From: a virus
Lineage: Duplodnaviria; Caudoviricetes
Virus record (IMG/VR): IMGVR_UViG_3300047160_036266
Span: 64,001 to 128,000 of that record
Reading direction: 5' to 3' (one strand)
Length of the DNA stretch: 64,000 nucleotides
The position numbers and the translations under genes were made by a program. The notes beneath the pieces were generated by a model that was not told the origin of the DNA, made no database searches, and worked only from the letters and a program-made list of their open reading frames with translations. Positions 62,652 to 64,000 of the stretch are shown piece by piece. The first letter of the stretch is position 1; every line of letters begins with the position of its first letter.

Positions 62652-62725
62652 TAGCACGGGTGGGAATTGCACCCACGGCATCTCAGTTTTTGAAACTAAG
62701 TGGTCTACTGTCTGCCTACCGTGCC
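62652..62725 (-). tRNA. non-canonical 74-nt tRNA, anticodon CAA (Leu codon UUG)
   Basis: GGCACGG/CCGUGCU-A; 6-bp stem CUUAGU/ACUGAG, loop UUCAAAA; T-arm GUGGG-UGCAAUU-CCCAC. Confidence 0.8.
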
Positions 62726-62728
62726 ATA

Positions 62729-62841
62729 TCCCGTGACAGGAGCATTGCGGTTTTGCGGCTGCGCCGCCTTTACCCCGCTCGCATTAGCCCCATGTCACCT
62801 GCATCCCGATGCGAGCCGTTATGACAGGTCGAGTCACGGGA
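62729..62841 (-). ncRNA. candidate structured RNA inside tRNA array
   Basis: 9-bp terminal helix UCCCGUGAC/GUCACGGGA, internal helices and 8-bp GCUCGCAU/AUGCGAGC pairing; abuts tRNAs on both sides. Confidence 0.55.
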
Positions 62842-62843
62842 AG

Positions 62844-62917
62844 TGCCCAGGGCCGGAGTTGCACCGGCGGCATCACTGGTTCTAAGCCAATGTGGTCTGC
62901 TGTCTGCCTACCTGGGC
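62844..62917 (-). tRNA. non-canonical 74-nt tRNA, anticodon UAG (Leu codon CUA)
   Basis: GCCCAGG/CCUGGGC-A; CAUUGG-CUUAGAA-CCAGUG; GCCGG-UGCAACU-CCGGC. Confidence 0.82.
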
Positions 62918-62920
62918 AAG

Positions 62921-62994
62921 TGGCACGGGTGGGAATTGCACCCACGGCATCGCTGGCTCTCGACCAACGTGGTCTACTGTCTGCCTACCGTGCC
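62921..62994 (-). tRNA. non-canonical 74-nt tRNA, anticodon GAG (Leu codons CUC/U), C33
   Basis: GGCACGG/CCGUGCC-A; CGUUGG-UCGAGAG-CCAGCG; GUGGG-UGCAAUU-CCCAC. Confidence 0.8.
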
Positions 62995-62998
62995 ATAG

Positions 62999-63072
62999 TG
63001 CCCAGGGTGGGAGTTGCACCCACGGCATCAGAGGTTCTGGACCTCTGTGGTCTGCTGTCTGCCTACCTGGGC
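62999..63072 (-). tRNA. non-canonical 74-nt tRNA, anticodon CAG (Leu codon CUG), C33
   Basis: GCCCAGG/CCUGGGC-A; CAGAGG-UCCAGAA-CCUCUG; GUGGG-UGCAACU-CCCAC. Confidence 0.8.
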
Positions 63073-63075
63073 CTG

Positions 63076-63423
63076 TTATTGAAGTCGATCTCGGATACTT
63101 TCAAACCACTGGATGAACTTTTCTTTGTTTGGATGTTGCCCTTGCGACACAACCTCCACCGCACGGTCCAGGGCGTAGTGCATATTGCCGATTAGGTCGT
63201 TGAGCCATCGACCCTTGGGGATTGCCGATCTGAGCGCCTTGGCGTCCGCCGGCAAGTGCTGGGCATAAGCCTGCATATTGTGCAGGAGGTTTCCGCCCAT
63301 GTCCCAGCGCCCTTTTAACATTTCCTGCGCTAACCGACCCAGCTTCGTGGTGTTGACCAGGGCATTGGTGACTATCTCTTGGGCTACGTCAGCGGCCTCC
63401 AGCCATTGTCGGAAGGTACTCAT
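63076..63423 (-). CDS. hypothetical protein, probable virion-internal
   Basis: N-terminus MSTFRQWLEAAD. Confidence 0.6.
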   Translation of the reverse strand: MSTFRQWLEAADVAQEIVTNALVNTTKLGRLAQEMLKGRWDMGGNLLHNMQAYAQHLPADAKALRSAIPKGRWLNDLIGNMHYALDRAVEVVSQGQHPNKEKFIQWFESIRDRLQ

Positions 63424-63443
63424 GGAGTTATGTAGGCTTCCCG

Positions 63444-63743
63444 CTACCAAAACGGGTCGCTGTCGGGCTTGCACTCCTCAAAGCCGCCTTCCTTGTCAAA
63501 CATCCGTTCCCACAAGGTCGCGTCCCGATATAGTTCGATGGTCCGGGCTGAACTGCAACAGTCGTGGTAATCATAAGGGTCTTGCTCGTGCAATTCGAGG
63601 TAGGTTGCCTTGTCCTCGAAGAGAATATGCGTGAGCGTCACTCGGTCCTGGCCGAAGCGGCTGACCTTCTGGCCCCGGAAGGCCACGATATTCATGCCGA
63701 TCAGGTCGGTCCACTTCGGAATGCTGGACTTTTTCTTTGCCAT
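63444..63743 (-). CDS. hypothetical protein
   Basis: GGAGGG RBS overlapping tRNA 3' flank. Confidence 0.6.
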   Translation of the reverse strand: MAKKKSSIPKWTDLIGMNIVAFRGQKVSRFGQDRVTLTHILFEDKATYLELHEQDPYDYHDCCSSARTIELYRDATLWERMFDKEGGFEECKPDSDPFW

Positions 63744-63755
63744 AATTCCCTCCAG

Positions 63756-63829
63756 TGGCACGGGCCGGACCTGCCCCGGCAGCATCACTGATTTTAAGTC
63801 GGTGTGGTCTTCTTCTTGCCTACCGTGCC
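63756..63829 (-). tRNA. non-canonical 74-nt tRNA, anticodon UAA (Leu codon UUA)
   Basis: GGCACGG/CCGUGCC-A; CACCGA-CUUAAAA-UCAGUG; GCCGG-GGCAGGU-CCGGC. Confidence 0.78.
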
Positions 63830-63833
63830 AAAA

Positions 63834-63920
63834 TGAGCAGTGGAGGAGTTGAACCACTCGGCATCCGCCCCACTTCTTTAATGCCAACAGTTTTACAGAC
63901 TGCCGTGGGGAACACCGCTC
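63834..63920 (-). tRNA. atypical tRNA-Tyr(GUA)-like RNA lacking a normal D-arm
   Basis: GAGCGGU/ACUGCUC-A acceptor; GCAGU-CUGUAAA-ACUGU; GGUUCAACUCC T-loop with weak stem. Confidence 0.5.
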
Positions 63921-64000
63921 AAATTCTTTCGATCCGAATTGACATGATTGCCCAAATGAGTTATTGTCTCCTAACTGTAGTGCGGCTGGACGGGACCGCA

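Follow-up and report, generated by a model that had tools for sequence, protein, structure and literature searches.

A tRNA slot in the array of a giant soil phage is occupied by a real, conserved and structured non-coding RNA gene, which is a member of a new, small and uncatalogued family. The family belongs to a known kind, that of the non-tRNA RNAs embedded in phage tRNA operons, and the unit is not a Y RNA, nor is it a known ribozyme or riboswitch. Taken as a whole, the explanation that we favor, with a confidence a little above even, is that the gene encodes a non-coding RNA of a new family that would be excised by tRNA-processing enzymes, fold, and act in trans as a mimic of the tRNA acceptor end. 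The unit was found in a stretch of 64,000 nucleotides, here called the window, which corresponds to bases 64001-128000 of a 343-kb IMG/VR virus record; positions within the unit are numbered 1-112, position i being window position 62841-i. Coordinates of the unit, its helices, its neighbors and its homologs are collected in Table 1.

Table 1. Features of the RNA unit, its neighbors in the array and its homologs. Coordinates are those of the window unless a metagenome locus (L) is named; empty cells have no entry.
Feature	Unit positions	Coordinates	Strand	Remarks
Whole RNA unit	1-112	62729..62840	-	112 nt; delimited with homologs and covariance model R1
Spacer CUU, tRNA-Leu(UAG) to unit	U at -1	62841..62843	-	Same in 5/5 copies
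Spacer UAU, unit to next tRNA		62726..62728	-	AAU in L020 and L008
tRNA-Leu(UAG), short, upstream neighbor		62844..62917	-	74 nt; ARAGORN; Rfam tRNA 36.1 bits
tRNA-Leu(CAA), short, downstream neighbor		62652..62725	-	ARAGORN; Rfam tRNA 37 bits
tRNA-Leu(CAG), short		63072-62999	-	
tRNA-Leu(GAG), short		62994-62921	-	
P1, 5′ strand CCCGUGAC	1-8	62833..62840	-	Pairs with 62730-62737
P1, 3′ strand GUCACGGG	104-111	62730..62737	-	Followed by unpaired A (62729) at the place of the tRNA discriminator
P2′ hairpin	12-20 with 37-44	62797..62829	-	U17 bulged; 16-nt loop
P3, 5′ strand GCUCGCAU	25-32	62809..62816	-	Within the P2′ loop; invariant
P3, 3′ strand AUGCGAGC	57-64	62777..62784	-	Invariant
P4, 5′ strand GGGGC (tentative)	50-54	62787..62791	-	Pairs with 62739-62743
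P4, 3′ strand GCUCC (tentative)	98-102	62739..62743	-	One base (U103) before the P1 3′ strand
P5a/P5 arm	67-69/90-92 and 74-78/82-86	62749..62774	-	A-rich internal loop; GCGGC-RCA-GCCGC (74-78/82-86)
Homolog		L020:4989-5100		99% identical to the window copy
Homolog		L008:230-339		
Homolog		L003:4060-4169		
Homolog		L032:1268-1377		Same sequence as the L003 copy

Every gene around the unit lies on the minus strand, in the order Tyr-like tRNA, short tRNA-Leu(UAA), two small ORFs, tRNA-Leu(CAG), tRNA-Leu(GAG), tRNA-Leu(UAG), the unit, tRNA-Leu(CAA) and a 62-codon ORF. The four neighboring tRNAs score 31-37 bits with the Rfam tRNA model, and an encoded CCA is absent from the tRNA genes read in the array. 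The unit starts with CCCGUGAC, finishes with GUCACGGG and a single A, and is preceded by a U at position -1; the flanking tRNAs share this layout (U-1, 7-bp acceptor, A73). The tRNA-like register is kept in all copies, with U-1, 3-nt spacers and a terminal helix (P1) followed by A. P1 is 8 bp long in the window and L020 copies and 7 bp long in the L008, L003 and L032 copies, which have lost C1 together with its partner G111 and measure 110 nt. A preliminary description of the region had recognized a structured element in a tRNA slot, and this is borne out by a 112-nt, minus-strand unit in exact tRNA register. The element had been drawn at 62729-62841 with a length of 113 nt; its location stands, but 62841 is the last base of the spacer and the unit runs from 62840 to 62729. 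The distance to the tRNAs on either side, put at 2-3 nt, is 3 nt on both sides, and the closing helix, put at 9 bp, consists of 8 Watson-Crick pairs, or 9 when U(-1)-A112 is counted.

Other genes of the neighborhood and of the phage record were inspected as well. The Tyr(GUA)-like tRNA gene (63834-63921, minus strand) is 88 nt long and has a very short D region; its sole match, a sub-threshold one of 29 bits, is to the tRNA-Sec model, and a near-identical copy is present in L020. Two genes downstream of the array, protein P0004 (62277-62474, minus strand) is very basic, has 65 residues and carries a C-x6-C-x2-C motif. No Pfam or PHROG family was found for it, and judged by these sequence features it could be a nucleic-acid binder. 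Searches of the neighboring proteins P0001-P0005 gave no informative Pfam or PHROG family; P0002 has homologs, P0006 and P0007. Outside the window, the phage record contains PolyA_pol-family frames of the CCA-adding type (G000:C1:56243-56671 and 324743-325225, both on the plus strand; 409 and 589 codons).

The neighboring tRNAs have an odd D-arm word; when metagenomes were scanned for GTAGGCA-N6-AGACC in two adjacent copies, 31 loci were obtained, four of which carry the unit. All four come from related soil phages and their units are 91-99% identical, and the family comprises five copies, four of them distinct. Between the two clades (window and L020 versus L008 and L003), the unit is 91-94% identical. 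The corresponding values are 72-87% for the five orthologous short tRNA-Leu genes and 68-74% for the downstream adjacent protein gene, and the flanking coding DNA overall, including the P0004 gene, is 75-84% identical when the window is compared with L020, L008 and L003. Because its identity lies above that of both the tRNA-Leu and the protein genes, the unit evolves more slowly, and under tighter constraint, than any other feature of the locus. Covariance model R1, derived from all five copies, scores these at 140-144 bits; neither the 31 array loci nor the 343 kb of the phage itself yielded a further copy with it. The 50,697 phage records searched by blastn, among them T4, gave no match to the unit or to a 3-kb region surrounding it. 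Pattern scans of IMG/VR, run with the D-arm word, a gapped word and two words that are invariant in the unit, returned nothing except one chance match, L034, which lies inside a coding region, is rejected by R1 and was discarded as a homolog. IMG/VR scans with two neighboring proteins gave no match, and a 20-mer scan of GTDB genome contigs gave nine chance matches, the best of which reached a model score of 15 bits, against 140 for true copies.

The fold that we propose (Table 1) consists of five helices and was examined for consistency with the changes among the copies, which amount to eight columns with substitutions and one paired deletion. Every substitution leaves the pairs of the five-helix model intact (134 of 134 cells are paired), and the variable positions 49, 55, 79 and 97 are unpaired. 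Within P2′ (pairs 12-16/40-44 and 18-20/37-39), A12-U44 is replaced by G12-C44 in L008, L003 and L032, a compensatory change, and C18-G39 becomes U-G in L003 and L032; there are no mismatches in any copy. P2′ appears in the minimum free energy (MFE) fold of the window copy and, once the P3 strands are blocked, in that of every copy. P3 is a perfect 8-bp helix with a duplex energy of -12.3 kcal/mol. Because it ties the P2′ loop to the 3′ domain, P3 is a pseudoknot, and together with P2′ it is predicted to be of the H type. P4 is more tentative. It is chosen in the MFE fold of every copy when P3 is blocked, G52-U100 changes to G-C in L008 and L003, and a rival partner at positions 65-69 is about 5 kcal/mol worse. 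The P5a/P5 arm is present in every predicted fold, and its sole change, G79A, falls in the triloop; the modeling indicates that P5 is probably extended by pairs 67-69/90-92. With the P3 strands blocked, the MFE fold of every copy consists of P1, P2′, P4, P5a and P5.

We also assessed this fold against shuffled sequences and alternative energies. The MFE of the unit has a z-score of -2.4 relative to shuffles, and two perfect 8-bp helices arise in 1% of 2000 dinucleotide shuffles. With four distinct sequences and only one compensatory pair, covariation does not reach statistical significance; in a shuffle control of the pairing-preserving changes, 73 of 500 shuffles reached the observed score. 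For P1 and P3 the support is complementarity, because both are invariant, apart from the paired loss of C1 and G111 in P1; the P5 helix is likewise invariant across copies. By nearest-neighbor energies the pseudoknotted and nested folds lie within a few kcal/mol of each other, and the pseudoknot is not clearly favored. The minus strand is the RNA strand, because the G-U pairs occur only in the minus-strand reading and two of them would be A-C on the other strand; a plus-strand RNA was rejected on this ground. Several elements of the preliminary description reappear in this fold. The pairing that had been called pseudoknot-like is P3, in which GCUCGCAU is the perfect complement of AUGCGAGC in all copies; the GCGGC/GCCGC hairpin, GCGGC-GCA-GCCGC in the window, is also kept in all copies; and CCUGUCA does occur twice in the unit. 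The description had looked to homologs and covariation for support: four conserved homologs were found, and the covariation is limited as stated above.

The unit was then compared with known RNAs. Rfam searches with 1.3 kb of sequence or with the unit alone, on both strands, at gathering cut-offs and at E up to 10, returned no family for the unit, and a homolog gave the same result; the only noise was a 13-bit hit to sX9, whose gathering score is 44, on the opposite strand. None of the riboswitch models in Rfam matched the unit. With E up to 10 and both strands searched, Rfam returned no hammerhead, twister, twister-sister, pistol, hatchet or HDV-like ribozyme, and the order of the helix strands presumably does not fit the nested double pseudoknot of HDV. 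ARAGORN lists the flanking tRNA genes and not the unit, and the Rfam tRNA model (RF00005) does not match the unit at E up to 10; the absence of a T arm and an anticodon arm, noted earlier, is upheld by both programs. The unit nevertheless resembles a tRNA at its ends, with a 7-8-bp terminal helix, U-1, an unpaired A, spacers of 3 nt and, one base ahead of the terminal 3′ strand, a helix of 5 bp. P1 and P4 together make 12-13 bp and resemble the stack of acceptor and T stem; in the 110-nt copies, the 7 bp of P1 and the 5 bp of P4, with one bulged U between them, give the 12 bp of that stack, and the joiner and P4 correspond to tRNA positions 44-48 and 49-53, respectively. In contrast to a tRNA, the unit is 110-112 nt long, lacks D arm, anticodon arm and T loop, and has a hairpin loop that forms eight Watson-Crick pairs with the 3′ domain. 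Three further candidates were rejected. A tRNA, an intron-containing tRNA or a tRNA with an insertion does not fit, the unit having no likeness to the short tRNA-Leu body and no GGCAGACAG or AGACC words; a small protein does not fit, inspection of the RNA strand revealing only ATG frames of 6-7 codons; and an antisense partner of the phage tRNAs does not fit, with only chance words of 6-8 nt and one 13-nt match (E = 0.42).

Among RNAs that imitate tRNAs, the tRNA-like domain of tmRNA and the tRNA-like structures of tymoviruses share with the unit an acceptor-like terminal helix combined with one or more pseudoknots, and they are processed or recognized by tRNA enzymes. These mimics differ from the unit in retaining a T arm as well as an end that is CCA or can be charged; in addition, the acceptor arm of the viral structures is itself built by the pseudoknot, whereas the pseudoknot of the unit is internal. 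The Tymo_tRNA-like and tmRNA models gave no match to the unit. Closest in kind are rnaC (species 1 RNA, 139 nt) and rnaD (species 2 RNA, 119 nt) of phage T4. These are non-tRNA RNAs of similar size in a phage tRNA cluster, on the same strand as the tRNAs, and lie 1-6 nt from each other and from tRNA-Arg; they are small stable RNAs whose biological roles are unknown (PMC3014915). They have no sequence similarity to the unit by blastn against the phage collection, which includes T4. Furthermore, a canonical T arm (GGGUUCGAAUCCC) is present in rnaC and rnaD terminates with GCACC, whereas the unit has neither a T arm nor a CCA-like end and is built on a pseudoknotted core.

Beyond the observed anatomy, conservation, strand, structure-preserving changes and modular movement of the unit, we infer how it might be transcribed, processed, kept stable and used. 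It would be transcribed from the minus strand within the polycistron that carries the short tRNA-Leu genes; RNase P would cut between U(-1) and C1 to generate the 5′ end, and the 3′ end would derive from the RNase P cut at the next tRNA and subsequent 3′ trimming, with CCA possibly added by the phage's own CCA-adding-type (PolyA_pol-family) enzymes. The released RNA of ~110 nt would fold compactly, with P1 as closure, P2′, the P3 pseudoknot, a probable 5-bp P4 next to P1 and the GC hairpin, and would act in trans through sequence-specific contacts, binding a tRNA-handling protein of the host or the phage. Excision by the enzymes that process the flanking tRNAs appears the most likely route, because the ends of the unit (U-1, a 7-8-bp helix, A and 3-nt spacers) mimic those of a tRNA. 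Action in trans through sequence-specific recognition is suggested because the helices as well as the loops are near-invariant. The preliminary description had proposed a co-processed RNA, and this is supported indirectly by the tRNA-like ends, by a conservation above that of the flanking tRNAs and by the minus strand of the array, in which no promoter-like or terminator-like sites were found. Against the proposed processing, RNase P and CCA-adding enzymes normally make use of the T loop, which the unit lacks, and the spacer 3′ of the unit is without the initial C that begins the spacers after the tRNAs of this array and of its four close relatives. The neighboring proteins, to which no family could be assigned, give no pointer to a binding partner. 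Standing by itself, the reading of the unit as a protein-binding mimic of the acceptor end is a tentative one, less likely than not.

The position of the unit within the array bears on a different reading, in which it would act only in cis, as a precursor element that is later degraded. The order is CAG, unit, GAG, UAG, CAA in the four relatives, with the unit between tRNA-Leu(CAG) and tRNA-Leu(GAG), and CAG, GAG, UAG, unit, CAA in the window, with the unit between tRNA-Leu(UAG) and tRNA-Leu(CAA). Because its slot differs in this way, the unit moves as a module with tRNA-type boundaries; judged from the gene sequences, the change of slot suggests recombination between near-identical tRNA bodies. 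In both settings, the unit is preceded by a tRNA with a GCCCAGG acceptor and the spacer CUU and is followed by a tRNA with a GGCACGG acceptor. A structured spacer might keep adjacent tRNA-Leu bodies, which are nearly identical, from mispairing, or might set the order or rate of RNase P and RNase E cuts. Such a role would agree with the alternation of these two shared acceptors in the array, with the invariable placement of the unit between one type and the other, and with a terminal helix (CCGUGAC/GUCACGG) that resembles the GGCACGG/CCGUGCC acceptor with its strands swapped. However, a stable hairpin would suffice for this purpose, and 91-99% conservation over 110 nt, loops included, would not be needed; moreover, most other junctions in the same arrays have spacers of 3-6 nt and no such unit, and more distant arrays with the same tRNA type also do without it. 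We consider a cis-acting spacer unlikely, although it ranks first among the alternatives. Ranking below it, and in our judgment improbable, is a conformational switch, aptamer or self-cleaving ribozyme of a new class, in which the duplicated CCUGUCA and GUGAC words and mutually exclusive helices would toggle and gate the release of the unit or of the next tRNA. Several such exclusive helices are possible in all copies, overlapping alternative pairings would be expected to produce the near-total conservation of helix sequence, and aptamers and small ribozymes typically have this size and such a pseudoknotted-junction architecture. A perfect helix 11-15/96-100 arises in L008, L003 and L032 through A12G, U97G and U100C, and the unconstrained MFE fold of these copies is a nested one that contains this helix, with P3 as an ordinary nested helix. 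In the window and L020 copies, the helix is impossible, with two mismatches (A12-C99 and C14-U97); because the nested fold is confined to one clade, a switch is conceivable there but does not characterize the family. In addition, the CCUGUCAU/GUGACAUGG helix, which the preliminary description had put forward and which can form in the window, is weakened in three of the five copies, where U44C leaves an A-C mismatch, the same change being compensated in P2′. Relaxing E to 10 brought no match to known ribozyme or riboswitch models, the unit has no hammerhead core (CUGANGA), and no gene is placed for regulation by it. Still less credence is given to a composite reading, in which the unit would be the first representative of a new class of functional RNA: a bistable, pseudoknotted mimic of a tRNA end would alternate between P2′/P4/P3 and the nested 11-15/96-100 fold, gating RNase P or CCA addition and tuning the output of the tRNA-Leu species that lack a variable arm, or would bind a ligand or cleave itself.

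Two known kinds of element were weighed in the same way. A decayed tRNA gene or a functionless scar of recombination between tRNA copies would account for the occupation of a tRNA slot in an array that is clearly rearranged, and for the tRNA-like positions in the 110-nt copies (7-bp P1, 5-nt joiner at 44-48, 5-bp P4 at 49-53); U55 and the GCAAU before the P4 3′ strand also recall the UGCAAUU T loop of the neighbors. Yet the unit evolves more slowly than the adjacent functional tRNAs and far more slowly than coding DNA, its substitutions keep pairing, it shares only chance words with the phage tRNAs, and the tRNA model is silent; decay is very unlikely. The least probable of the readings is a Y-type RNA, YrlA-like or YrlB-like, that would partner a Ro60/Rsr protein. 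Y RNAs (YrlA, RF02553; YrlB, RF02565) are ~100 nt long, have paired 5′ and 3′ ends, adjoin phage tRNAs and mimic parts of tRNAs, some being substrates of RNase P and CCA-adding enzymes, and they are defined by the motif GNCGAAN0-1G near the 5′ end (Chen et al. 2014, PMC4201824). The unit is of the same size class and shares the closure by a terminal helix and the adjacency to phage tRNAs known for Y RNAs (PMC4201824), and the same operon has a Y-like unit that matches Rfam YrlA at 31 bits (L002 2339-2409). In contrast, the defining motif is absent near the 5′ end of the unit, which reads CCCGUGACUCGACC (CUCGAC; ...CUCGGCC in relatives), as is a T-arm-like stem-loop; neither YrlA nor YrlB matches at E up to 10, and the unit does not share the GGATGGTGCAG start of the neighboring Y-like units. 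The search of the 343-kb record for a TROVE gene for Ro60 (PF05731) was negative, although absence from the whole phage is not proved because the record is 69% complete.

The 31 array loci revealed further features of phage tRNA arrays. The 74-nt tRNA-Leu genes without a long variable arm (62652-63830 of the window, minus strand) are not peculiar to this phage and occur in loci L003-L033. Every one of the tRNA units recovered there by nhmmer and read has a Leu anticodon (UAA, CAA, UAG, GAG or CAG), and ordinary tRNA arrays are usually found next to them. In most, the T loop is a normal GGTTCGA and the D loop contains GG; the lineage of the window has GACAGYAGACC and a UGCAAYU T loop. A non-tRNA module of ~105-145 nt recurs between tRNAs (L005 2019-2161, L015 1322-1445, L019 1728-1850, L026 1037-1158, and L027 2102-2240 and 2390-2494). 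It starts TGAC/TGGCAACCG..CCCAAC...CTTACAAAC, ends ..GTGACTTG.GCGG and has an 8-10-bp terminal helix, and it has the look of a further RNA family in phage tRNA arrays. Other tRNA slots hold single modules that are 90-140 nt long and have a 7-10-bp closure (L013 205-308, minus strand, between short tRNA-Leu(UAA) and tRNA-Leu(CAA); L017 315-454, plus strand; L007 976-1069, minus strand; L023 550-638 and 817-951, minus strand); R1 finds nothing in them, and they have no resemblance to the unit. Long hairpins whose arms are tandem repeats of 7-8 nt (AAATCCG, GGATGAA, GTCAGAA) lie between tRNAs at L005 1861-1949 and 3163-3248, L027 1467-1560, and L031 93-200 and 971-1069. Finally, at L003 2889-3038 and L032 97-246 the C-terminus of an HNH-type endonuclease (...HHVDGD...N...CPNCH...) ends directly before the short tRNA-Leu(UAA), a place where the window has no such gene.

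Ever since T4, it has been clear that tRNA clusters of phages can harbor small stable RNAs for which no role was ever found, and large uncultured phages carry many more RNAs of this kind. The unit described here illustrates them cleanly. Its sequence is short and evolves at a lower rate than its tRNA neighbors, its ends are tRNA-like, its pseudoknotted fold lends itself to testing, and it lies within a second, unusual set of leucine tRNAs, none of which has the long variable arm. Known from five copies and offering no clue to its function, it enlarges the catalog of structured RNAs in a modest but real way. Were it merely a processing spacer, the unit would be of local interest. If instead it binds a protein that processes, charges or cleaves tRNAs, it would show how phages of this sort protect or regulate their private tRNA supply.
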